In this document: positions 1-64,000 of the stretch, one piece after another
Numbering within the stretch: position 1 is the stretch's first letter
Layout: every line of letters starts with the position of its first letter
Assembly: GCA_002391075.1 (NCBI GenBank)
Contig: DGRN01000010.1
Span: forward strand, 20,738-84,737
Direction of reading: 5' to 3'
Source: Candidatus Saccharibacteria bacterium UBA4387
Lineage (GTDB): Bacteria; Patescibacteriota; Saccharimonadia; Saccharimonadales; Saccharimonadaceae
Length of the DNA: 64,000 bases
The notes under the pieces: generated by a model
The model's input: the letters and a program-made list of their open reading frames with translations, nothing else
Database searches by the model: none
Told to the model about the DNA's origin: nothing
Program-made: the position numbers and the translations under genes

Positions 1-2
1 TT

Positions 3-707
3 AACATTTCTGGCAAAGCCCCATCCGGCCGTACCAACCCAATCGACACTATCTATGTCTGGGAAAATAACGAATTCTATTACTACGACAACGGCGAAAA
101 ACGCCCGCTCAGCGACTTCACCAAAGCCGCCGCTGCTGGCGAATTCACCCTCGACGGTTTCTACACCGACGCAGCCAGAACCAAAAAACTCGACCTCAGT
201 CAAAAACCAGAAAGCGACCTCACTCTCTACGCCGCTTGGACTCGCACCGTCACCTTCGACGAGCGCTATCTCTGCAACTACAACGGCAATATCATTACCT
301 GCGAAGACAACAACACCCCGTCCGTCACCGCCGAAGAAAGCACCGAACTTCAACCATTCTTCCCAGAAGATTTCGCTCCATCTGAAACCCCAGGCGAATG
401 GACCATCGAAGGCGACGCCGCCACCATTGACCAAAACGGCAAACTCACTGCCCTCCAGGCCGGCGAAGTCTACGCAGTCTATCGCACCACCGACGCCGAC
501 GGCACCACCACCTACGAATACCGCGTTAAAATCACAATCACCGAAAAACCCGAAACCCCACAAGAATCCGGCAGCTCCGACAGCGCATCGCCAGAATCGC
601 CGAAAAACCCAAACACTCTCGACAGCCTCAGTACTATTCTCCTCATTTCCGGCACCTCCGCCGCCGTTCTCGGCCTCTGTATTATCTACAGGCGCCACAT
701 CCACTAA
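3..707 (+). CDS. C-terminal part of a cell-surface protein (5' end outside window): Listeria-Bacteroides-type repeat, Ig-like segment, C-terminal sorting signal
   Basis: Frame 3 is open from the window edge to TAA 705-707 (hand translation). It is absent from the ORF track because it has no start. FTLDGFYTDAARTKKLDLSQKPESDLTLYAAWT fits the G-x-F-x-G-[WF]-Y-T-D...LYA-x-W repeat. GDAATIDQNGKLTALQAGEVYAVY is Big_2-like. The protein ends KNPNTLDS + LSTILLISGTSAAVLGLCIIY + RRHIH. Track ORF 55..774 is a different, low-complexity frame. Confidence 0.8.
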   Translation, partial: NISGKAPSGRTNPIDTIYVWENNEFYYYDNGEKRPLSDFTKAAAAGEFTLDGFYTDAARTKKLDLSQKPESDLTLYAAWTRTVTFDERYLCNYNGNIITCEDNNTPSVTAEESTELQPFFPEDFAPSETPGEWTIEGDAATIDQNGKLTALQAGEVYAVYRTTDADGTTTYEYRVKITITEKPETPQESGSSDSASPESPKNPNTLDSLSTILLISGTSAAVLGLCIIYRRHIH

Positions 708-5777: not shown

Positions 5778-8700
5778 CTAGCGGCGGCGGCGCCTTGCCA
5801 GGAACATCATCATTCCAAAGCCTAGCACGCCCGCTCCGGCCAAGCCAGCAATCTTACCAACAATGCCGTCTGCCGTATTTGGCACCTCAGGATCCGGAAT
5901 AATCTCGTGAATGAACGTAAATGTCATTGTTTCAGGATCAAATTCCACCACCGTCGTATAGCCATCAACGTCTTTTGCCAAGACCACGCGGTAATTATCC
6001 TTCAGATATTCGAACAAAGGCGCAAAGTCAAACTTCTCCGTTTCGTTCTCCGTCGTGATGCGATTTCCGCGCTCTTTCTCGCCGTCAAGCAACAGCTCGA
6101 AATCCAGTGAACCAGGGCGCCTACCAAGCTCATCGTTATTATCCTTCCAGATATTCACCACATGAATCGTGATATTGCGCAAAACGCTCGTAAAGGTAAA
6201 CGTATGCGTTTCTTCGTCATACTCAACCGTGGTCGTATACGGATCAATCTCATCCATCTTGACATTGAACTCGTCAATAATCGCAGACGGAACCTCGATA
6301 AACTCAAACTCTTCCGGATCTTCATCGGAGCTTAGCTCGTGCGTTGCCTCTACGAGACCGCCGTCTTCACAGACAACCACATCGCCTTCTGGTTCTTCGC
6401 CATCTTCAGCATCGGAACCGTCAGCATTGCCTGCATCGGAGCCATCGCCGCCATCGGCGCCAGTCGCATCGCCGTCAGAACCATCAGAGCCGTCAGCACC
6501 AGTTACATCGCCGTCTGAACCGTCATCGCCGTCCGTCGCCTCGCAAGCTTCACCTTCGCATTCTTCTTCGGTTTCTTCTTCCGCCTCTGCGCATTCTTCG
6601 CGATCAGTCCAGATTAACTTATAATCCGTCTTCTCTGGGCGCACACCCAAAACATCGTCATCATCGTCCCAAACGTGCACCACCTTAATCGTTTCGACGT
6701 CCAACTTGCTCGTAAAGGTATACGTCACCGAGCCGTCATCTTCGTCAGTCACTTCGACCGTCGTCGTGTAGTGCGGCACGTCGATCATCGGCACGTCATA
6801 GTCTTCTTTATCCGGTCTGTGCAAGTTGATATAATCAGTTGCGCTCTCGCCATCGCGGATATTCAGACTCTTCGTATCAACCTCGTCATCCTTCTTCATC
6901 AGCGTATAGCTTGTGATGTCTGGGCGCAATCCGTAATGGTTATCGTAATCTTCCCAAACTTGCTTTACGTGAATATCCAAATCGTCGACCAGCGTACTTG
7001 TGTAGATATACGTTTTCGACGAAGGCTCATATCGCAGCGTCGTTTCATAATGCTCGATATCGAGATTCTCCATCGAGAAATTAGCTTCTTTTCGCCTATC
7101 AAGGTTCAAGAACGCATCATTAAATTCCGTCACACTGCCGTCATCGCCAAAGTCAATCGTCTTTTTCAAGTCATTTCCGCCAGAATTCTTCAGTGTGTAC
7201 GTCTGCGAATCCGGTCGTAAGCCACGCGAGTCATTATCATCGATCCAGATATGCTTCACTCTGATATCCAAATCGTCAACCAGTGTACTCGTGTAAATAT
7301 ACGTTTTCGTCGAAGGCTCATATCGCAACGTCGTTTCATAATGATTAATGTTCAAGTCTTGCATAGAATAATCAGCTTCCCTCAACCTGTTCAAGTTCTT
7401 GAACTCTTCATTAAACTCGGTCACAGTACCATCAGTACCAAAGTTAATTGTCTTGTACTGATTACTCCCATTAGCGTCATACAGAGTATATCTTTGTGAA
7501 GATGGCCTAAACTTACGTGAATTATTGTCGTCAATCCAGATATGCTTCACCTTGATATCCAAATCATCAATCAGTGTGCTCGTGTAAATGAAGGTGCGCG
7601 TCCTTTCGTCGTAAGACAAAACCGTCTGATAATGATTAATGTTTTTATCGTCCATATAATACTTATCAGAATTGAGCAACGGCAAATTAGAATACGTCTC
7701 GCTAAACTCAGTCACAGTACCATCAGTACCAAAGTTAATCGTTTTACTCTGGCTACTCGAACCCGTCTTCTTCAAAGTATATTGCTGCGAAGATGGCCTA
7801 AACTTACGCACATTATTCGCATCAATCCAAATATGCTTAACTTTGATATCAATTCTATCGCTCAATGTACTCGTAAATGTATACGTATGGTTGTTATCCG
7901 ACTTGGTTAATACCGTCGAATAATGCGTAATCGGATTCGGCGTCATCGTCACGTTGAAATCGCCGAACATATACTTCGGGAATTCCGCATACTCATATTC
8001 CTGCGAATTCACAGTCTTGTCGATGGTCATATTATACTTTTCAGCCGACGTCGTCTGCTTCATCAAATCAAATGCCAAAGTATTCGGGCGCGTATTGTAC
8101 TTGTTGTCGTTATCGATCCAAACTTTTCGCACCTTAATCTTATCAGTCGCTAATTCGCTCTTGAAGGTATAGGTAATCAAGTCCTGCTCTTCAACCCTGC
8201 TTACCAACTGAGTATTGTAACTACTTCTGCCATCGGCCGTCGCAATCCTAGATATAACCACATCATAGTCATCTTTGTAATACTCATGCAAATCCACATA
8301 CTCAATCGTCTGCGTATTGCCAGAAGTCGCCGAAATCACCTTCGTGCCATCAATCACCGACGTACCCTTCTTCAACTGTGGCGTCACGGTTGCTGGTCGC
8401 GTACTGAACTTATTATCAAGATCGACCCACTGCTTAATTACGCGAATCTTGAGCGGATGATCAATCGCCACCCTGGTCGTATTCGAACGCACACCGATGA
8501 CACCAGGAAGCGGCGCACCAGTATCCGCATCAAAACCATTCCACTCGCTACGGAACGCGCTATACGCGAAGGTTCCACGGCCACCGGTCGTCGGCGCCTT
8601 CATCTTTATAATCGTATAGATATAATCGTTCGTATTCAAAGTAGCTTTGCCGCCATCCGTCGTCAAATATTCAAAGGCAAGCGACTTTACCTGGCTCTTA

Positions 8701-11700
8701 TTCGTGGTGCCCTCAATATACTCCCTCCAAGAATTATCACTACCAAGCGAACCAGCATTGTTCTTTGTCGAATAATAAACTTTTACCTTAATATTCTTGC
8801 CATTATAATCCTTGCGGCCGTTCGCATAAGTCAAATCCACACCGTCAAAAGTACCTTGCCAGTGATCATTATCCTCGTAGGCCATTTCAATATTGCTGTA
8901 AGTCACAATATTCGTCGCGCGGCTCATACCAGTTCGCGCCGTCAACTTATACTCGTAGTTTCCGCCAGCCGTCACATATGAATCATTCGTCGTAAAATCT
9001 ACCGTCTGATCAGTGTCGACCATTTCTTTCAACGACTGCTCCGCCGCCTGCGCCATCAAAGGAGTGATATCCATCGCCTCCCAGTCTTGCGCCTCAGTCG
9101 TGTCGCCATTATCGTTATAATCATCAGTATCTTTATATCCGCAGTTACCGCCTTCTATATAGCAGCTAGGATTCCTCAATACCTGATACGTCCGGAATTG
9201 GTACGTAGCGTCAGGGTTTTCGACGTATTTCTCGTAAGGAATTTTATATTTGATAAAAAACCTAAACTCATCACTACGATAACGGTCATGTTGATTTAAT
9301 CTAGTATAAGGCTTTTCCGAAAAATCAACCTCAATCTGTACCCAATCCTGCCCTGTATTATGCCAGTTCTTTACGATTTTCACCGTAGCGTGATTCTTAA
9401 TAAATTCTTCAGCCTCATCACCACTGCTGAACAAATGTTCGCCATTCTTATCAAAAGCTTGTTCAGTCCAGTACGTCGACCAGTTCACATCTATCGAATC
9501 AAATATTTCCTCTTTCGTCGATAAAAGCGTTACGCCTTTTGGCATCATGAATTCACCATAAATACGAGATATAAAATCTTCATCCTTCATCTGCGCCGTA
9601 AATAACTTCGGATTTTTTTCACCATCCGTCGAGTATTCTATCGTAAGCAAAGTAGCTTCTGCTACGCCCACAAAACCATCCGACGAATTATCAAAAACCG
9701 GCTTACTGTAGTTATATATACTTGGATCCGGCTTACGTATAATATTCCCAAGCACATAGCCTTCCCACTCTTTCTCCGCAACCCAACGCTGCTGATAGTG
9801 ACCGTAAGTCGCCAAATCGTATGGTGCAATCTTATCTCTAGTAACACCCTCGGCGTAACTCTCCAACTCAGGAACATTCACTATCACGCCATTACGATCC
9901 ATTTCAGTATAGCTAAAGTTATAAACCTTACCGTTTTCAGGCAAATTTTGAGACTTCAAGGTAACGGTTGTTTTGAGCGTATAATCCTTTATGTCTCTAT
10001 CCATGCCTTTAATTACAACTCGCCAACCGACAACATTACCCTTAAGTTCATCGCTTTTAGTAAAACTCCAAACATCCGACCAGCAAGCAGAGCTGTAATA
10101 ATCATCTAGATCCAATCGCTTATATTCGTTCTCTCCTCTTAAGCGATAATACACTTCAGCACTATAAGTATTAACCGAATTCTCACGACAATAGAACAAC
10201 GCGCCGTTAGCGCCAACCATATGATTAGGCGATGTTATTCTATCAAAGTAGTAATCGTCCTCATTCAATTTCTTTTTTACGCCATCTGTTATATCTTCGT
10301 AATACAATATATCATCACCGATAACCAAATCATATTTCTCGCCGTTCGTATTCATTACTTGCGAGCTAATATCAAATAAAACCGACCCACCACTATCACT
10401 TTTGATGGCCCCACCATTTATTACTGGCGTGCTAGTATCAACTTTCTTAAATACACCAACGTCATTGCCCTTATACTCGAGCTTAAAGTTACTCAGGTCA
10501 ACTGTCGCAACGTTTTCAGCTAGTTCCGACTCATTCGTCTCCCTAAAATACACGCCCCTAGAATACACGGTATCTTTTACCTCGTTTTTGCCAAGAGATT
10601 CATTGTATTTATTCTTTGGGTAACCCACAAATATCTCTCTACACGTCCAATAAGCAGTCATACAGACATCGCTCGTATTACCAGATATATATCCAGCATC
10701 CGACACGATATAATACCCATTCGCATCTCTAGACATCTGATTTTTATTGGCATCCAAAACCTTCACGTCAGGGCTAAGCGCATCACGCCAATACCAACTC
10801 TTCACAGGAATCTTCTGGTAGTCTCGATAATTACTATACTCACTATATGTCGACGTCTCCGGGTTATAATTATTCGGCATATAATTGACAAAAGTGTCCC
10901 TGCTATCACCGTAATATACATAGTGAACCCATGTATAGTTATCTGCATCACTCCCCAAGCCCTCATATGAATTTATCTTTTTAGGACTTACATACACCGA
11001 ATACCTGTCTTTGGTCCATTCAAAATTATAGCTACGATTATAGTGTACGGTAGCGTTATCGCTACTCTCTATCGAATCATTTAGTGTCGCGCCAACACTT
11101 TTGTCATAAGTAAAATTAGCATTTTCCAAGAAGAATGGCGGATACAAACTGTTCTTTTCGTAACTCTTAACCCTATATGCTAGCTGGATCGCACCATCTA
11201 CGCTCATACCCGCCGGAATCGTATTCCTGTTCCAAAAATAACAAGTCGGCGCCTGACTACCATTGACAATGTCAGTCACTCCTGACTCGCATTTATATTC
11301 CCAATCTTTCGGGTTTTCCGAAGGAGTAGCACCTTTCTTCTCTGCCGCATAAGCAGTACTCACCACGGACAAACTATTCAGATACTTATCGCCAAAAACT
11401 TCATCAGTAAACTTCGTACCGTATAATTCATTTGAATTTCCACTAAACGGTTCTTTGACTGTGATTTTCAAATCACCAGGAGCATAATCTTTATCGACCA
11501 CCTCAGCCTTATAATTTACTTGGAGGGTAAATGTCCTTTCTTGTGCAGAAGTTGTGTCAGCGTCAATACTCCAAGTCTCGCTCTTAGAAGTATTTCCTTC
11601 CAAATCCACCCAGCTCGTTGACAGCTTCCATACATCAGGGCTCACCTCAGCTTCGGCATGAGTTTCGTTTTTTGCATTAATAATCGCAACCGCGCTCACG

Positions 11701-11774
11701 CTTGTCACCGCAATCACCGCCGCAACAACAAAAATGCGTTTCAAAAACCTTGATCTCCCAAAAACTCCTAACAT
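5778..11774 (-). CDS. Giant cell-surface adhesin (1998 aa): signal peptide, about 1080-aa N-terminal region, CnaB-like domain array, acidic DGSDG linker, sorting signal
   Basis: AAGGAGG lies 4 nt before ATG 11774. The N-terminal signal is FLKRIFVVAAVIAVTSVSAVA. Repeated K-x-W-x-D-x-[DN]N-x(3)-RP-x-S units are the hallmark of Cna protein B-type domains. The C-terminus is EVPNTADG + hydrophobic helix + RRRRR. Confidence 0.9.
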   Translation of the reverse strand: MLGVFGRSRFLKRIFVVAAVIAVTSVSAVAIINAKNETHAEAEVSPDVWKLSTSWVDLEGNTSKSETWSIDADTTSAQERTFTLQVNYKAEVVDKDYAPGDLKITVKEPFSGNSNELYGTKFTDEVFGDKYLNSLSVVSTAYAAEKKGATPSENPKDWEYKCESGVTDIVNGSQAPTCYFWNRNTIPAGMSVDGAIQLAYRVKSYEKNSLYPPFFLENANFTYDKSVGATLNDSIESSDNATVHYNRSYNFEWTKDRYSVYVSPKKINSYEGLGSDADNYTWVHYVYYGDSRDTFVNYMPNNYNPETSTYSEYSNYRDYQKIPVKSWYWRDALSPDVKVLDANKNQMSRDANGYYIVSDAGYISGNTSDVCMTAYWTCREIFVGYPKNKYNESLGKNEVKDTVYSRGVYFRETNESELAENVATVDLSNFKLEYKGNDVGVFKKVDTSTPVINGGAIKSDSGGSVLFDISSQVMNTNGEKYDLVIGDDILYYEDITDGVKKKLNEDDYYFDRITSPNHMVGANGALFYCRENSVNTYSAEVYYRLRGENEYKRLDLDDYYSSACWSDVWSFTKSDELKGNVVGWRVVIKGMDRDIKDYTLKTTVTLKSQNLPENGKVYNFSYTEMDRNGVIVNVPELESYAEGVTRDKIAPYDLATYGHYQQRWVAEKEWEGYVLGNIIRKPDPSIYNYSKPVFDNSSDGFVGVAEATLLTIEYSTDGEKNPKLFTAQMKDEDFISRIYGEFMMPKGVTLLSTKEEIFDSIDVNWSTYWTEQAFDKNGEHLFSSGDEAEEFIKNHATVKIVKNWHNTGQDWVQIEVDFSEKPYTRLNQHDRYRSDEFRFFIKYKIPYEKYVENPDATYQFRTYQVLRNPSCYIEGGNCGYKDTDDYNDNGDTTEAQDWEAMDITPLMAQAAEQSLKEMVDTDQTVDFTTNDSYVTAGGNYEYKLTARTGMSRATNIVTYSNIEMAYEDNDHWQGTFDGVDLTYANGRKDYNGKNIKVKVYYSTKNNAGSLGSDNSWREYIEGTTNKSQVKSLAFEYLTTDGGKATLNTNDYIYTIIKMKAPTTGGRGTFAYSAFRSEWNGFDADTGAPLPGVIGVRSNTTRVAIDHPLKIRVIKQWVDLDNKFSTRPATVTPQLKKGTSVIDGTKVISATSGNTQTIEYVDLHEYYKDDYDVVISRIATADGRSSYNTQLVSRVEEQDLITYTFKSELATDKIKVRKVWIDNDNKYNTRPNTLAFDLMKQTTSAEKYNMTIDKTVNSQEYEYAEFPKYMFGDFNVTMTPNPITHYSTVLTKSDNNHTYTFTSTLSDRIDIKVKHIWIDANNVRKFRPSSQQYTLKKTGSSSQSKTINFGTDGTVTEFSETYSNLPLLNSDKYYMDDKNINHYQTVLSYDERTRTFIYTSTLIDDLDIKVKHIWIDDNNSRKFRPSSQRYTLYDANGSNQYKTINFGTDGTVTEFNEEFKNLNRLREADYSMQDLNINHYETTLRYEPSTKTYIYTSTLVDDLDIRVKHIWIDDNDSRGLRPDSQTYTLKNSGGNDLKKTIDFGDDGSVTEFNDAFLNLDRRKEANFSMENLDIEHYETTLRYEPSSKTYIYTSTLVDDLDIHVKQVWEDYDNHYGLRPDITSYTLMKKDDEVDTKSLNIRDGESATDYINLHRPDKEDYDVPMIDVPHYTTTVEVTDEDDGSVTYTFTSKLDVETIKVVHVWDDDDDVLGVRPEKTDYKLIWTDREECAEAEEETEEECEGEACEATDGDDGSDGDVTGADGSDGSDGDATGADGGDGSDAGNADGSDAEDGEEPEGDVVVCEDGGLVEATHELSSDEDPEEFEFIEVPSAIIDEFNVKMDEIDPYTTTVEYDEETHTFTFTSVLRNITIHVVNIWKDNNDELGRRPGSLDFELLLDGEKERGNRITTENETEKFDFAPLFEYLKDNYRVVLAKDVDGYTTVVEFDPETMTFTFIHEIIPDPEVPNTADGIVGKIAGLAGAGVLGFGMMMFLARRRRR
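5900..8520 (-). repeat. Tandem array of about 10 CnaB-like domain repeats (about 95-97 aa each) inside the adhesin gene
   Basis: The three most similar units are in a 291-nt register (ATATCCAAATC at 6973, 7264, 7555). An acidic Asp/Gly/Ser low-complexity insert lies at about 6380-6560. Confidence 0.8.
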
Positions 11775-18161: not shown

Positions 18162-19328
18162 ATGAAAAAACTAGGCATTTTCGCCGCGGCAATTTCCACC
18201 GCAGCGGCCGGAATTATCGCTCAATCTGCAAGCGCTATACCGGGCACTATCTATATAAAAGACGACAATCTCTACGAAGCACTCAAGACCAATGCAAGCT
18301 TCTACTTCATGCCTTACGGCAGCACAACATATACCAAATATACTCCAGGCTTCATCGACAAAGGTGGCGTTACGCCTATCTCCTCAGGAGAACCGTCCAG
18401 CTACGGCGCCATAGTCGACGAAATCATTCCAGATAAAATCGTCTTCGACTGCTCCAATGGCGACCCACTAGCAAACGTCGAGAGCCTCGACAGCCTCCTC
18501 GACATCAACCTCGACGAAGTTGGCGTATGTAGCGATACTGCCGCCACGGCCATCAGAACCGCATATGCCAACCTAGATCCTCAGCCAAGCACCAACCTGA
18601 ATGTTTTCGTCAACACAGGCTGTACACTCACAACCCGCTTCATCAACACTCAGGGCGAAAAACTTGCCGAAGACGATGTCTATGTCTCCAAGTGTGAAAA
18701 TATCCAACAAGACGAAGTTCATGAGATTAAAACCTTCGATAACGCCAAATACAAATTAGTTGCAGGTGATTTCATTGGCGAACCAAGCGCATTCGTCTAC
18801 TACCTCAACAACACGGAGGGCGAAAGCTCCAGGGCGGTCTTCCGAAGCAGCCAAGACACCGAAAACGACGAGGAGCTCTTCAGTGATTACTTCGACATGC
18901 AACCGATGGGCACCTGGAATGACCAAACCAACAAAACCATCATCTACACCTACGACCTAAACTTCAAGATTCCAACCGGTGATTACACCTACGAATCCGG
19001 CGAAAGCACCTCTTCGGCCGACGTCAAGCTCATCGACGCCAATGGCAACGAAACAGAATACACCCTCCAAGACGTCGAAGACATCGCCGAGGCTCTCATG
19101 GGCGACGAAGAAGCCTCAATCGAGGTTGTCAACGGCGACATCACGATCCGCATCAACGGCGTCAAATACCTCAGCGTCAAGCCAGCCACTACGCCAGAAG
19201 CAGCCCCAGAAGAAGAAACTCCGGCCAACCCAAACACCGCCGACAGCTTCTCCACTACTCTGGTTGTAACGCTTGCCGCCAGCGTCATGCTCGGCCTCGG
19301 CATCGCCACTAAGGCTCGCCGCCGCTAG
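18162..19328 (+). CDS. Secreted surface protein with C-terminal sorting signal (388 aa)
   Basis: Signal peptide MKKLGIFAAAISTAAAGIIAQSASA. The C-terminus is ANPNTADS + FSTTLVVTLAASVMLGLGIA + TKARRR. The middle segment TRFINTQGEKLAEDDVYV...YKLV is loosely MucBP-like. Confidence 0.8.
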   Translation: MKKLGIFAAAISTAAAGIIAQSASAIPGTIYIKDDNLYEALKTNASFYFMPYGSTTYTKYTPGFIDKGGVTPISSGEPSSYGAIVDEIIPDKIVFDCSNGDPLANVESLDSLLDINLDEVGVCSDTAATAIRTAYANLDPQPSTNLNVFVNTGCTLTTRFINTQGEKLAEDDVYVSKCENIQQDEVHEIKTFDNAKYKLVAGDFIGEPSAFVYYLNNTEGESSRAVFRSSQDTENDEELFSDYFDMQPMGTWNDQTNKTIIYTYDLNFKIPTGDYTYESGESTSSADVKLIDANGNETEYTLQDVEDIAEALMGDEEASIEVVNGDITIRINGVKYLSVKPATTPEAAPEEETPANPNTADSFSTTLVVTLAASVMLGLGIATKARRR

Positions 19329-58174: not shown

Positions 58175-61100
58175 ATGGGTATTCGACGGAAGTCAAAGTT
58201 TTTAAGGCGGCTTTTTGCCGCTATTTTTATTACAATTCTAAGCGGCTTTTCTATTACGGCTATCATTCAGGCCAACAATAAAACCAGCGCACTCGCAGAA
58301 GTCAGCAGCGACGTTTGGAATCTTAGCCTCAGCTTCTACGATAGTACCGTCGACAACGGCAACACGGAACTTACGCAACAAACTTGGAGCGTGCCAGTCG
58401 ACCAAACATACAGCGGTGCCCGCACATTCACTATCCAGACAAACTACTCAGCAAACATCGTCGATAAAACATACAACCCTAAAGAGCTCCAAATCAAGCT
58501 CGAGCTTCCTATTCGCCCAGGTTACTCAACTAGAAGACAATACACAACAACCAACGCTCTCGGCCAAGAATGGACCGACTCTGCATTCCTCTGGCTCGAC
58601 AGTTATAACGTCTCCGCTAAACCCCTAAATGGCACTTCTACCATTGATTACGATTGGGAATATGAATGCCCAAGCGGTCAAAACTACTGCCTCTTTAGAA
58701 ATCTCAAGCCCATCGAAAAAGACGATAGCCTCCAAGGAAGTTTCCAGGTAACATTGCAGTTCCATATTAATGGCGGGGTCAACGGTGCTCCGTTCTTCGA
58801 AGAAACCTTCCATGAAGAATTAGCATACGAAGGCGTGGCTACCCTCAATAATACAGTCAGAAGCAATCCTATTAATATACACCTCTCTAAAGACACTGCT
58901 GTCGAATGGAAAAAACGCAATTATATCGTCAAGACCGCCCCGCGCAAACTCGACTCTCTCGATGGCTTCAATGTCGCCAACGCAAACGACTACACTTGGG
59001 TTCATTATGTCTATTATGGCGCCAGCGTAAACAAAAAAACCGATACTCAAACCACTGCCCCTTACGAAGCCCCCTACACGCCAGAAACCGGCCCCGAAAA
59101 CTATGTGTATGCACAAAGAAACCACTACATCCCCATAAAAGACTGGCGTTGGGAAGATACTTTCAGCGACGACGCTCTTGTCTTCAATTCAGACAAACAG
59201 CCAATGACCAAAAATAATGAGGGCAACTACATCATCTCCTCGTCTCCAGCAAAGACCACTTCTTATTGTAGAATTACAAACAACTCCAGCGTCTATGTCT
59301 TCAACACCTGTTACGAAATCTACGTCGCATTTCCAAAAGATAAGTTTAACGAAACACTAGGGATTGATAAAGTCAAAGTCAAAAATACTGTTTATTCCCG
59401 CGGCACTTATTTCCTATCCGACCAGGAAGAACTGCTTGATGAAAACTCGGCAGAAATTGATCTTCGTAATTTTGCGCTTAGCTACGAAGGTAACTCTGTT
59501 AGTATTTCAAAAGCCCTTAATACCGCAAATGCTTATGGCAACATCAATTATGCAACCTATCAGAGTCTCCGCACAAAAGCTGGCGCTTCCTTCTACTACG
59601 ACATTCATGTTAGCGCTCTAAATCTTGGCTCCGAGCCATACGATTTAGTAATTGGCGACGATATCGCTTTCTATCAAGACCGAACCACTGGCGCCGTCAC
59701 TAAATTTAACGACGATGAACACTCCTTCACTCGCATTAGAGCACCATACGAGCTCGTTGCCGCCAACGGAGAAGATTTTACCTGCGCAAACTACGACGTG
59801 GAGGTCTACTACCGACTCGGCGGCGAATCTGATTACCGCAGACTCGACGTCACCGGCAATCACGCCCACCCATGCGGCAGATGGATAGAAGGTATCTATA
59901 CTATGCAACCAACCTGGAATCTACCAGACAATAGCGTTGCTTGGAAGATCGTAATCAAGAACCTCGACAAGGGTATCGCAGATTATCCTATCTTCACCGT
60001 AGCAAACTATCACTCCCAAAACGTGCCGCAATACGGCGAACTGTACAACTTCTCCTATGCAGAAGTGCAACGCAATGGACAAACCTTAAACGTCGTTCCT
60101 TTTGAATCGTACGCCTCCGAACTAACACAGGAAAACCTTGCACCATACGACCAAGCCACATACGGACACTACCAACAGCGTGCTTTCCATGAATATAGCT
60201 ACGACATACGCCCGGTTGCACCTATCCTAAATGTTGCAACGGGCGGCCCAAGTCTCGACAGCCAATCGATTGCATATAATGCCTCTACCGATGGCTACGA
60301 GGGCATGCTCAAAGATAACGCGTATATTACTCAACAATCTTCAGATAAGGAACTAAATTTTGACGTCCTTCGTCAAGATCTTACAGAAGCAGATCTAACT
60401 ACCGAATGGACCCAATATATCCTTTTGCCGCCTGGAGTTACCGTTGCTTCAACCCCAGAAGAAATCGCTAATAGCGCCTCTGCCGAACCAACTTTTGAGT
60501 ATCTCTACAATTTAGACGGCACAAGAGTCTTCAATACCAAATTCGCCCTACGCGACTACGTCAAAACACATACTCAAGTCAGCGTAATAAAGAACTGGCG
60601 CAATAGCGGCCAAGAACTCATCCGTACTCACATCGACTTTTCCGAAAAACCATTCTTTGCACACTTGGCAAATTATTCGGGCAGCATTTCTTCGTTCAAT
60701 ATTAAGATTCGCATCCCATACGACGTCTATGCCGAAAACGAGGCAACGGATCCAGGCCATAAATATCCTCTAAAGACTGTTGTCGCAAACGACGATAGCT
60801 ATAAGCTCGGCACAACCAATATTATTTGGAGCCCAACGCCAGACGACGGCACCTTCTTCGGCAATGCTGCCTATGCAGATGTCGACGAGGACGAAAGCAC
60901 TGAGGATATCTTCTATACAAGAGATGACGATTTCTCGATTCTCACTGCCGTCGCAGCAGAGCAATCCATCAAAGCCACAACACAAACCGACCAGAATAAC
61001 ACCTACACGACAGAAGATTCCTACGCCACCGCCGGCAGCGAATATTATCACAAGCTCGCCATCCGTACTGGTAATAGTAAGGCTACCAACGTCGTTGTAT

Positions 61101-64000
61101 ACGATGTCATTGAAGCCGCCTTCGGCAACAATGAGCACTGGCAAGGCGAATTCCTCGGCATCGACACCAGCTATGTCGAAACTCAAAACGACGCTAATGG
61201 CAATCCTATTCATATCAAAACCTATTACTCACCAAACACCAATCCTGGCTCACTAACCTCGGATAATAGCTGGCAAGAGTATATCGAGGGAACCACTGAT
61301 CCTTCTCTCGTCAAATCTATCGCTTTCAAATACGTTGACGCTAACGGCGACCCAACAACCGTTCCGGCCAATAGTTACGTATATACACTCCTTCGCATGA
61401 AAGCCCCGGCCGACAATCCAAGCACCGCTTTTGCATACAACAACTTCCGTACCGAATGGAACGCCATCGATCAAAACTCCGGTATGCCGGTCCCGCAAAT
61501 TGAAGGCATCTCTTCTAATACTACGCGCGTTCAAATCGACCATCTCTTCGACATCCACGTCGTTAAGCAGTGGGATGATTTCAACAACAAATATAATACT
61601 CGCCCAAGCACCATCACGCCAAAACTCACTCGCGATATCGAGACTATCGATCACAGCTCGTCTATCAATATCGCCAACGGCGAGAGCACTCTTGATTATC
61701 ATAATTTGCACGAGTACTATCGCGATCAATACGACGTCACGCTCGACTCCATCCCGCTCTACACAACCACTCGCAGCTACGATAGCGACACTCTCACCTA
61801 CACCTTCAAGAGCGTCCTCAACACCGACAAAATCAAAGTCGTAAACATCTGGAACGACAAAGACAACGCCTACGGCATGCGCCCAGGCACTGTCGATTAC
61901 AACCTCGTTTACAACAACGCAACCGATAGCACACATCAGCTCAACGTCACCGGCAACACCGACAATTTCGACTTCGAAGGCATTCCTGCACACCTCATAA
62001 AGCAACATTCTGTCGCGCTAAAGCAAAACGTACCGAACTACACGACCACGCTCGAAGTTAGCGAAGACGGCAAAACGTACACCTTTACGCACACACTTAC
62101 CGCCACCTTCGATATCACCGTCAAGCACATCTGGATCGACAACAACAACATCAATAATCTCCGCCCAGCCAGCGTTGAGTACACCCTCACGAAGGAAGAA
62201 GAAACCGACAATACTCTTACCATCTCTGCCGCCACCAACGGCCAGGATAAATTCGCCTCACTGCCACTCCTCGACGAAGAAAAGTACTCCGTCAACGACG
62301 TTGTCATTCCACACTACACGACGACTAAAGCTTACGACCAAAGCACTCATACCTACACTTTCACCAGCACGCTTTCGGACACCTTCGACATCAATGTCGA
62401 ACACGTCTGGATTGATAACAACAACGCCTACGGCTACCGCCCAGACAGCGTCGAATATACCCTCAAGAAAGAGCAGGCCACAGAAGCAACCCTCACCTTA
62501 GACAACACCGACGCCAGTGACAGCTTTACCGGCCTCCTGCTTCTTGACGAGTCGAAATATTCCGTCCCAGATGTCACCGTCCCGCACTACACGACCACCA
62601 AGGCCTACGACTCCACAACCCACACTTACACCTTTACGCATACTCTCTCTGAGCAATTCAAGATCACCATCAAACACGAGTGGAAGAATGACGAAAATAA
62701 CGCTCGCAACCTCCGCCCGAGCAGCGTAGATTACACGATCAAGGAAACTGGCGCCACCGACCACACGCTCACGCTCGACGCAATCGATACCCAGAATGAA
62801 CTCGCTAATCTCGACCTCCTCGATTATGACAAGTATTCCGTCAACACCAACGTCACCGTCGACCATTACCGCCTCGACAGCGCAACCTGCGAAACTCCAG
62901 CCAATACTCATGACTTGGTTTGTACCTTCGTTTATTCGCTCGAGGACAACCTAGACATTCATGTCAAACACATCTGGGTAGATAACAACAACGCCTACGG
63001 CTACCGCCCAAGCAGCCTAGATTACGAACTCCAAAAGAGCAACGCAACCGATCAGACCAAGACTTCCAGCGCCAACTGGACCGCAGATTTCGTCAACCTT
63101 CACGCTCCAGATGAAGCCGAATACTCGGTCGCCGACGTCACTGTCCCGCACTACACGACCACCAAGACCTACGACTCCACTACCCATACCTACACATTTG
63201 AGAGCACACTCTCAGACAAGTTCAATATCATCATCAAGCACGAATGGCGCAACGACAACAACAACGCTCGCAACCTCCGCCCGAGCAGCGTAGATTACAC
63301 GATCAAGGAAACTGGCGTCGCCGACCACACGCTCACGCTAGCTGCAACCAACACCCAGAATAGCATCACAGACCTCAATCTCCTCGACGCGGCCAAATAT
63401 TCCGTCCCGATCGACGTCACTGTCGACCATTACCATCTCGACAGCGCAACCTGTACTACCGATCAAACCACCCATAACCAAACCTGCACCTTTATCTATT
63501 CGCTCGAAGACAACCTAGACATTCATGTCCAGCACATCTGGATCGACAACAACAACGCTTACGGCTACCGTCCAAGCAGCCTAGATTATGAACTTACCAA
63601 GTCCGGCACGACCGACCAGACCAAGACTTCCAGCGCCAACTGGACTGCAGACTTCGTCAATCTCCACGCGCCAGACGAAGCACAATACTCCGTCAGCGAT
63701 GTCACCGTTCCACACTACACAACCACCAAAGATTACGACCAGAGCACTCATACTTACACCTTCACCAGCACGCTCTCAGACACATTTAATTTCACAGTCA
63801 AACACATTTGGATCGACGAAGACAACGTTCGCGACCTTCGTCCAGCCGGCGTCGAATACACCCTAACAAAGAGCAACACAACCGCAGACACTAAGACTCT
63901 TGCCGCCACCAACGCCGAAGACTCCTTCACTAACCTCAATCTCCTTGACGAAAATCTCTACGCAGTCTCAGACGTTACCGTCCCGCACTACGCCACAGAG
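58175..64000 (+). CDS. Second giant surface adhesin, paralogue of 5778..11774 (3' end outside window; at least 1942 aa)
   Basis: TAGGAG lies 8 nt before ATG 58175. Frame 2 stays open to the window end (hand-translated; absent from the ORF track because there is no stop). The signal peptide LFAAIFITILSGFSITAII and many blocks are shared with the first adhesin (EHWQGEF, DNSWQEYIEGTT, SIAFKY). A CnaB array starts at about 61547. Confidence 0.88.
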   Translation, partial: MGIRRKSKFLRRLFAAIFITILSGFSITAIIQANNKTSALAEVSSDVWNLSLSFYDSTVDNGNTELTQQTWSVPVDQTYSGARTFTIQTNYSANIVDKTYNPKELQIKLELPIRPGYSTRRQYTTTNALGQEWTDSAFLWLDSYNVSAKPLNGTSTIDYDWEYECPSGQNYCLFRNLKPIEKDDSLQGSFQVTLQFHINGGVNGAPFFEETFHEELAYEGVATLNNTVRSNPINIHLSKDTAVEWKKRNYIVKTAPRKLDSLDGFNVANANDYTWVHYVYYGASVNKKTDTQTTAPYEAPYTPETGPENYVYAQRNHYIPIKDWRWEDTFSDDALVFNSDKQPMTKNNEGNYIISSSPAKTTSYCRITNNSSVYVFNTCYEIYVAFPKDKFNETLGIDKVKVKNTVYSRGTYFLSDQEELLDENSAEIDLRNFALSYEGNSVSISKALNTANAYGNINYATYQSLRTKAGASFYYDIHVSALNLGSEPYDLVIGDDIAFYQDRTTGAVTKFNDDEHSFTRIRAPYELVAANGEDFTCANYDVEVYYRLGGESDYRRLDVTGNHAHPCGRWIEGIYTMQPTWNLPDNSVAWKIVIKNLDKGIADYPIFTVANYHSQNVPQYGELYNFSYAEVQRNGQTLNVVPFESYASELTQENLAPYDQATYGHYQQRAFHEYSYDIRPVAPILNVATGGPSLDSQSIAYNASTDGYEGMLKDNAYITQQSSDKELNFDVLRQDLTEADLTTEWTQYILLPPGVTVASTPEEIANSASAEPTFEYLYNLDGTRVFNTKFALRDYVKTHTQVSVIKNWRNSGQELIRTHIDFSEKPFFAHLANYSGSISSFNIKIRIPYDVYAENEATDPGHKYPLKTVVANDDSYKLGTTNIIWSPTPDDGTFFGNAAYADVDEDESTEDIFYTRDDDFSILTAVAAEQSIKATTQTDQNNTYTTEDSYATAGSEYYHKLAIRTGNSKATNVVVYDVIEAAFGNNEHWQGEFLGIDTSYVETQNDANGNPIHIKTYYSPNTNPGSLTSDNSWQEYIEGTTDPSLVKSIAFKYVDANGDPTTVPANSYVYTLLRMKAPADNPSTAFAYNNFRTEWNAIDQNSGMPVPQIEGISSNTTRVQIDHLFDIHVVKQWDDFNNKYNTRPSTITPKLTRDIETIDHSSSINIANGESTLDYHNLHEYYRDQYDVTLDSIPLYTTTRSYDSDTLTYTFKSVLNTDKIKVVNIWNDKDNAYGMRPGTVDYNLVYNNATDSTHQLNVTGNTDNFDFEGIPAHLIKQHSVALKQNVPNYTTTLEVSEDGKTYTFTHTLTATFDITVKHIWIDNNNINNLRPASVEYTLTKEEETDNTLTISAATNGQDKFASLPLLDEEKYSVNDVVIPHYTTTKAYDQSTHTYTFTSTLSDTFDINVEHVWIDNNNAYGYRPDSVEYTLKKEQATEATLTLDNTDASDSFTGLLLLDESKYSVPDVTVPHYTTTKAYDSTTHTYTFTHTLSEQFKITIKHEWKNDENNARNLRPSSVDYTIKETGATDHTLTLDAIDTQNELANLDLLDYDKYSVNTNVTVDHYRLDSATCETPANTHDLVCTFVYSLEDNLDIHVKHIWVDNNNAYGYRPSSLDYELQKSNATDQTKTSSANWTADFVNLHAPDEAEYSVADVTVPHYTTTKTYDSTTHTYTFESTLSDKFNIIIKHEWRNDNNNARNLRPSSVDYTIKETGVADHTLTLAATNTQNSITDLNLLDAAKYSVPIDVTVDHYHLDSATCTTDQTTHNQTCTFIYSLEDNLDIHVQHIWIDNNNAYGYRPSSLDYELTKSGTTDQTKTSSANWTADFVNLHAPDEAQYSVSDVTVPHYTTTKDYDQSTHTYTFTSTLSDTFNFTVKHIWIDEDNVRDLRPAGVEYTLTKSNTTADTKTLAATNAEDSFTNLNLLDENLYAVSDVTVPHYATE
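61547..64000 (+). repeat. CnaB-like domain array including a 564-bp two-domain higher-order duplication
   Basis: K-[HQ]-[IVE]-W-x-D-x-NN-x(3)-RP-x-S units occur every 90-99 aa. Units 62660-63223 and 63224-63787 are near-identical. Confidence 0.85.

Follow-up and report, generated by a model that had tools for sequence, protein, structure and literature searches.

The DNA analysed here, a stretch of 64,000 nucleotides that we call the window (C12:20738-84737), comes from a Candidatus Saccharibacteria MAG of 713 kb in 32 contigs, which is 69% complete and has a G+C content of 49%. It carries genes for three surface proteins with similar C-termini, the first of them in part, and the larger part of a fourth. 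The first gene (C12:19486-21444) enters the window with its last 234 codons (window 1..707, + strand) and encodes a protein of 652 aa that begins with an N-terminal signal peptide (MNKKLAFAGKALIAAICAIGLA...) and ends with ...SPKNPNTLDS-LSTILLISGTSAAVLGLCIIY-RRHIH* (window 3-707, +); its tail, consisting of KNPNTLDS, a 21-residue TM helix and RRHIH, lies at 603-704 (+), followed by the stop codon at 705-707. The second encodes a 1998-aa Cna_B-repeat adhesin on the opposite strand (5778..11774, -), with the C-terminus ...DPEVPNTADG-IVGKIAGLAGAGVLGFGMMMFLA-RRRRR*, in which EVPNTADG, a 23-residue TM helix and RRRRR occupy 5781-5888 (-) and the stop codon 5778-5780. The third encodes a secreted protein of 388 aa (18162..19328, +) that ends with ...TPANPNTADS-FSTTLVVTLAASVMLGLGIAT-KARRR*, with ANPNTADS, a 21-residue TM helix and KARRR at 19224-19325 (+) and the region including the stop codon extending to 19328. 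Both the 1998-aa and the 388-aa protein are complete in the window, and N-terminal signal peptides could be read from their sequences (MKKLGIFAAAISTAAAGIIAQSASA... and MLGVFGRSRFLKRIFVVAAVIAVTSVSAVA..., respectively). The first 1941 codons of the fourth gene, which encodes another Cna_B-repeat adhesin of 2656 aa, reach the end of the window (58175..64000, +), and its C-terminus, ...NTPFTGDQISE followed by a TM helix and RRVRKHNK, makes it a fourth putative substrate of the xPxTxD type (tail from NTPFTGDQ to RRVRKHNK at C12:86754-86870, about 2 kb past the window end).

Translation upheld the description of three shared non-LPXTG C-termini given in the initial annotation, with coordinates that were right to within one codon. 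Its view that the tripartite layout is the anatomy of a sortase substrate likewise held in full for the tails, and a Pro/Thr motif, about 20 hydrophobic residues and a basic C-terminal tail are present in four of four proteins. The three proteins had also been called unrelated. The three tails are as described, but the 1998-aa adhesin (Cna_B in 7 stretches, E=6.8e-33) and the fourth, 2656-aa protein (Cna_B, E=1.7e-53) are both Cna_B-repeat proteins. The 652-aa protein has a weak Big_2 match, and no Pfam or NCBIfam family matched the 388-aa protein. Matches to the tail profile were significant for all four (E=1.9e-12, 3.4e-16, 2.3e-14 and 5.2e-13 for the 652-aa, 1998-aa, 388-aa and 2656-aa proteins, respectively). 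From P4 to P1 the window tails read NPNT twice and VPNT once; P1' is Leu, Ala and Ala, and Gly occupies this position solely in the fourth protein, so that the Gly or Asn expected at P1' of a class B signal is absent from the three window tails.

Two further observations concern these proteins. Residues ~1670-1740 of the 1998-aa adhesin form an extremely acidic low-complexity insert of Cys, Glu, Asp and Gly (EECAEAEEETEEECEGEACEATDGDDGSDGD...) amid the Cna_B repeats. Gene calls on four independent metagenome contigs include an identical 388-aa protein, and the exact protein also occurs in the Logan assemblies SRR873599 and SRR873603, which we take to be sheep-rumen runs; the contigs found to encode it are short, and the sortase region missing from the assembly (see below) is not recoverable from them.

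Among the 1920 six-frame ORFs of the genome, just 5 have the pattern P.T.D at the matching C-terminal distance; the xPxTxD proteins account for four of them, so the pattern is not a product of chance. A de novo scan found 17 ORFs of the genome that end in a TM helix and a basic tail, and the motif is common to the xPxTxD proteins alone. The curated sorting-signal models TIGR01167, PF00746, NF033846 (E<=0.1) and TIGR03063 left the three window proteins unmatched. The canonical LPXTG signal (TIGR01167 / PF00746) shares its tripartite layout with the xPxTxD tails, but the window tails lack Leu at P4, and the three of them lack Gly at P1'. In LPXTG signals, the Gly is often followed by an acidic residue. 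TIGR01167 matches 13 of 25 tails from the genus weakly, from the Pro onward, and in the genome under study it finds solely two pilins of a class C sortase operon. The model NF033846 (Rumino_NPXTG), a curated variant signal, has Asn at P4 as in the xPxTxD tails, whereas P1' is not Gly in the tails of the genus; it matches 5 of the 25 weakly (best E=0.024). The sortase B target model, TIGR03063, matches two of the 25 (E=0.72), which counts against an assignment to SrtB-type signals.

The initial annotation had proposed conservation of the motif in orthologues as a check, and its position is indeed conserved in the relatives. A profile made from the three tails matched C-termini in 28 of 36 genomes of the same genus and gave one weak, spurious match in 24 other families. 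A second profile (A2), made from 25 tail sequences, recognised tails in 55 of the 59 genomes of the genus; at E<=1e-3 it gave no match in another 300 genomes of the order, which represent 218 genera. The tails of the weakest-scoring genomes were read directly and are true tails (NPATAD, NPNTAD, LPKTSD, NPNTDD, SPKTYD, SPKTDD, NPNTFD, NPQTAD, APKTGD and SPLTYD). In 35 tails of the genus, P3 Pro and P1 Thr are invariant (35/35 each) and P2' is Asp in 34; P4 is mostly Asn (24), with Thr (6), Ser (3) and Val (2), and P1' is variable (Ala 12, Ser 6, Leu 3, Gly 3, Phe 3, others). Genomes of the genus encode 4-10 xPxTxD substrates each; a census of the 99% complete genome G355 yielded eight such proteins, 342-1906 aa long, and in addition a small pilin with the end NTNTRD. 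Four genus members, G002, G016, G350 and G357, are without the motif and have LPETG, LPKTG or LPQTG substrates instead. A search of a collection of 5.8 billion proteins with the tail alone (a 49-residue region) returned only the query, the region being too short for significance.

Sortase-fold genes (PF04203), which the initial annotation had suggested looking for, are present: the assembly encodes four, namely one class C, two class B and one unclassified sortase of 410 aa, all outside the window. The class C sortase, which has a C-terminal TM anchor, belongs to a pilus operon (C9:58366-65229; likewise in relatives, L083-L087) together with a 1274-aa LPYTG tip protein, a small pilin of ~211 aa and a 507-aa LPFTGG shaft pilin. 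The small pilin ends in NVNTYD, and the signal of this operon type, N[V/T/S]NT[Y/R]D followed by a TM helix and a Lys-rich tail, is a Pro-less relative of the xPxTxD signal. Both class B sortases are encoded in pilus operons (C8:7277-10906, sortase at C8:10076-10906, and C19:2604-5660, sortase at C19:5001-5660), in which DUF7601-type pilins with the ends IKTGIE, VPTGIR and VLTGVA (xxTG[I/V]) lie upstream of the sortase. The C8 operon also encodes a SipA-like S26 signal peptidase, and its gene arrangement resembles that of the FCT-type pili of S. pyogenes. The 410-aa sortase (C3:21052-22284) has a TLITCTP active site and a Tyr/Lys/Glu-rich cytoplasmic N-terminal extension of ~190 residues, and it scores below the cut-off of every NCBIfam sortase class. 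The earlier suggestion that the signal marks the whole adhesin set of the organism does not hold, as the genome also encodes LPxTG and xxTG[I/V] pilins; xPxTxD is one of three signal classes in this organism.

Class B sortases as a group are present in 34 of 36 genus genomes and in none of 24 other families. Taken alone, this co-occurrence at the genus level had to be discarded as evidence, being confounded by phylogeny and by pilus-type paralogs; the confounding was addressed by separating an orphan class B sortase from the operonic ones and by testing other genera. The reference copy of the orphan sortase gene (G355:C1:115111-115938) is flanked by leuS and nusB and neighbours the gene of a class A PBP, and the synteny PBP-leuS-SrtB-nusB-rnc was found in seven of seven loci examined. 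One full-length ortholog (54-98% identity) is present in each of 52 of the 59 genus genomes. The remaining seven are the motif-less G002, G016, G350 and G357 and three assemblies of 66-73% completeness, including the one under study; apart from these incomplete assemblies, the genomes that lack the orphan are exactly the four without the tail. It should be noted that this co-distribution within the genus traces to one clade and thus to a single gain or loss.

The best PDB matches of the orphan sortase are B. anthracis SrtB (120 bits) and the NPQTN-specific SrtB of S. aureus (117 bits), compared with about 70 bits for pilus-type enzymes. A maximum-likelihood tree places the orphans with the SrtB enzymes of the Ba/Sa/Lm clade and their operonic class B counterparts with Spy0129/4y4q, each with support of 100/99; S. 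pyogenes Spy0129 or 4y4q are the best PDB matches of the operonic enzymes, including both copies of the genome under study. The best 120 homologs of the orphan sortase that were listed have 55-96% identity and are of the same sortase type; among them, the few that carry a source name are labelled Saccharibacteria, and no donor lineage is visible. The sortase of this lineage is possibly of horizontal origin.

The orphan type was not found in the 69% complete assembly that contains the window, the two class B sortases of which (C8 and C19) are of the pilus type. However, none of the 18 ORFs of the corresponding G355 block has an ortholog in this assembly, the essential leuS included, and the absence of the orphan gene is therefore read as an assembly gap. 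The link between tails and enzyme in this particular genome comes from its relatives. The sortase envisaged in the initial annotation as lineage-specific thus finds a counterpart in so far as a class B sortase of this kind is confined, within the order, to the genus and to a few sister genera of its family; the enzyme itself is not in the incomplete assembly from which the proposal arose.

Evidence beyond the genus was obtained from a family sample of 121 genomes from 95 genera, in which class B sortases occur in this genus and in five others, as a single copy in each of the five. The enzyme is of the orphan type in four of the five (45-51% identity), and the match in the fifth, G359, is weak (85 bits, 34% identity). 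In G397, the gene directly downstream of the orphan-type sortase ends in an NPATGD tail; in G389, an NPRTGD tail is encoded three genes upstream of the sortase; G364 has the tails NPRTGD (twice), NPHTGD and NPKTGD, and G150 the tail NPQTYD. Altogether, P2' is Asp in seven of seven tails from other genera and P1' is Gly in six of seven. No such tail was found in fifteen control genomes without a class B sortase (eleven genomes of other genera and the four motif-less genus members), in which hydrophobic matches without the motif, at E>=0.02, were the only ones. The xPxTxD/NPxTGD signal is hence tied to the orphan-type sortase by co-occurrence and by gene adjacency, with independent support beyond the genus coming from only four other genera. 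The distribution points to NPxTGD as the older form and to the free P1' position as a derived trait of this genus.

The initial annotation had named class B signals of the NPxT[NG] type as the closest described ones, which proved correct, and had stated that an Asp after the Thr-Ala/Leu position is part of no known sorting motif. The latter statement has to be revised, because the P2' Asp is documented for the signal DNPKTGDE of IsdC, on which B. anthracis SrtB has been tested (Jackson et al., J Biol Chem 2025; PMC11987632). That study found that the P5 Asp, the P2' Asp and the P3' Glu are required for full activity of B. anthracis SrtB, and that loss of the P5 Asp or the P2' Asp cost most activity (PMC11987632). 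In the model presented there, Y39 and K143 are close to the P2' Asp; Y191, S231 and R243 are close to the P4 Asn, and L106, F121 and Y138 to the P3 Pro (PMC11987632). In a HMMER alignment of the orphan sortase with 1rz2, the residues L106, F121, Y138, H140, Y191, I192, S231, C233 and R243 are conserved, and the retention of the modelled contacts to P4 and P3, I192 among them, was counted as support for the SrtB-type assignment. In the same alignment, the equivalent of K143 is a Tyr, with an Arg one position earlier, which counts against it.

The signal of the B. anthracis SrtB/IsdC pair is N-P-x-T-x-D, including the P2' Asp, and hence the same as the pattern of the genus. P1' is Gly in B. anthracis IsdC, as it still is in the sister genera, whereas it is free in this genus, in which P4 is also relaxed to Ser, Thr, Val or Leu. 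The substrates differ as well, being many large adhesins (Cna_B and others) in the genus and one NEAT haem protein in B. anthracis; no NEAT domain was found by Pfam in the xPxTxD proteins, which have Cna_B, a weak Big_2 match or no domain. Moreover, the sortase gene of the genus lies beside the housekeeping genes leuS, nusB and that of the class A PBP and not in an isd-type operon. The S. aureus SrtB/IsdC pair (NPQTN) has a class B enzyme of the same clade as the orphan sortase and shares the NPxT core, but its P1' is Asn and its single substrate is iron-regulated; we know of no requirement of S. aureus SrtB for a P2' Asp. In Clostridioides difficile, SrtB is the sole housekeeping class B sortase, recognizes [S/P]PxTG and NVQTG, and anchors several dispersed surface proteins. 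It thus serves several dispersed substrates and not a single operon partner, as proposed for the orphan sortase, with which it falls, by PDB score, into the same half of the class B family. Nevertheless, the motif is different, and other sortase classes coexist in the genus.

Three other explanations of the tails deserve consideration. The 410-aa sortase, as an order-wide "housekeeping" enzyme, could process the tails if, in the genus, it had come to read xPxTxD in place of LPxTG. No other sortase of the assembly is without adjacent substrates, 59 of the 61 relatives (genomes of the order) have kept the enzyme, and the xPxTxD genes are scattered in the way usual for housekeeping substrates; the class C operon also has a small pilin with the end N[V/T/S]NT[Y/R]D, and basal pilins of known pili are, by analogy, handed to the housekeeping sortase. 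However, the 410-aa sortase is equally present in the motif-less G002, G016, G350 and G357, which carry LPxTG substrates instead, and in all other families, and its nearest solved relatives are LPXTG-type enzymes of classes C, E and A. In addition, non-pilus substrates of the LPKTG type persist alongside the motif (C16:21319-21840 of the genome under study; a 145-aa and a 719-aa protein in G355), and the 410-aa sortase consequently has other plausible clients. The argument that it lacks any other substrate failed when the 719-aa LPKTG protein and a protein with the end [L/I/M]PKTGP were found. The 410-aa sortase, which had been the initial candidate, was thus downgraded, as it occurs where the motif is absent and LPxTG clients persist where the motif is present, and we consider a role of this enzyme in processing the tails to be unlikely.

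Still less probable is that the pilus-type class B sortases, of which the C8 and C19 enzymes are the representatives in this genome, act on the xPxTxD proteins, which might, for instance, be subunits at the tip or base of their pili. An xPxTxD gene adjoins a pilus-type class B sortase gene in four loci (G024:C9, G030:C14, G022:C8 and G032:C13), and enzymes of this type are present in the assembly and, among the 61 relatives, limited to the genus. Yet their operons encode pilins of their own with xxTG[I/V] and no P2' Asp, and in one operon type a SipA-like S26 peptidase; the majority of xPxTxD genes lie far from any sortase gene; and G364, G389, G397 and G150 combine NPxT(G/Y)D tails with a single class B sortase, which is of the orphan type, and have none of the pilus type. 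It is also conceivable that the tails are uncleaved C-terminal membrane anchors and that the motif serves another purpose, for example, as a feature of a stalk or linker, in favour of which the absence of the cognate enzyme from the assembly would speak. This we regard as highly improbable, given that the Pro, Thr and Asp do not vary and keep a constant distance from the helix in proteins with unrelated passenger domains and in five genera, that the tails strictly co-occur with one sortase type, and that the pattern matches a biochemically defined SrtB signal.

The layout and conservation of the signal, the shared distribution of signal and orphan sortase, the proximity of their genes in other genera and the position of the enzyme in the tree were observed directly, and it is very probable that the tails are sortase signals of some kind. 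As judged from these comparisons of sequences, they are probably cell-wall sorting signals for an orphan class B sortase of the SrtB/IsdC type that reads N/x-P-x-T-x-D. An xPxTxD protein would be exported by Sec via its N-terminal signal peptide and would be held in the membrane by the C-terminal helix and the basic tail. A class B sortase that is anchored in the membrane and has the active site TLSTC would then cleave, presumably after the invariant P1 Thr, and the acyl-enzyme would be resolved onto an amine, probably of the peptidoglycan, so that the adhesin would become covalently fixed to the wall. Recognition would involve the P4 Asn (relaxed to Ser, Thr, Val or Leu), the P3 Pro, the P1 Thr and the P2' Asp, that is, the pattern of the IsdC signal NPKTGD, with the Gly at P1' having become free in the genus (Ala, Ser, Leu, Phe and others). 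The enzyme would be the single-copy orphan class B sortase, which the organism of the window presumably also possesses.

Most likely, xPxTxD anchoring is therewith a lineage-specific variant of the known SrtB anchoring of the NPKTGD type and not a new pathway. A more far-reaching proposal, to which we give tentative credence and somewhat less than even chances, is that the SrtB-type sortase has become the main adhesin-anchoring enzyme of the lineage and that its recognition has moved from the Gly at P1' to an obligatory Asp at P2', leaving P1' free. If so, this would be a sortase specificity that has not yet been described, it would anchor large and in some cases hypervariable adhesins by which the epibionts may bind their host bacteria, and it would provide protein labelling by sortases with an orthogonal ligation motif.

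The way in which Saccharibacteria, which live attached to other bacterial cells, display their adhesins is almost unstudied. A literature search found no description of sortase substrates or motifs in the phylum Saccharibacteria, and a search for NPXTD-type strings found nothing relevant. The rule of xPxTxD followed by a TM helix and a basic tail would delineate the probable set of wall-anchored adhesins of a Saccharibacteria genus from rumen and gut, together with one candidate enzyme. It also lends comparative support from dozens of species to the biochemical finding that class B sortases read P2', and the genus represents a natural case of an unconstrained P1' position that may be of interest to sortase engineers.

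Several additional observations concern other sortases and signals of the genus. A Lys/Glu/Ala-rich protein of 120-175 aa that ends in [L/I/M]PKTGP and a TM helix (C16:21319-21840 in the genome under study, G355:C1:526260-526697, G016:C9) is kept in genus members with and without xPxTxD and is a candidate client of the 410-aa sortase or of a small sortase. The latter, of ~220-235 aa, is encoded directly downstream of secY, overlapping or abutting its stop codon (G355:C1:244344-245006, G016:C4, G357:C13, G350:C7); it likewise occurs in genus members both with and without the motif, and it was not found in the 69% complete assembly of the window. Lastly, a subgroup of pilus-type class B sortase genes that are otherwise intact contain a single in-frame TGA in at least 12 species (for example, G026:C1:33505-34029, G024:C4:36959-37627 and G004:C21:2733-3395, and about ten more). 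In three genes that were read, the TGA stands at two different conserved Trp positions (in the motif G-W-I/L and in D-W-x-I-Y), which could reflect either repeated pseudogenisation by TGG>TGA changes or a TGA codon that is read through or recoded as Trp.
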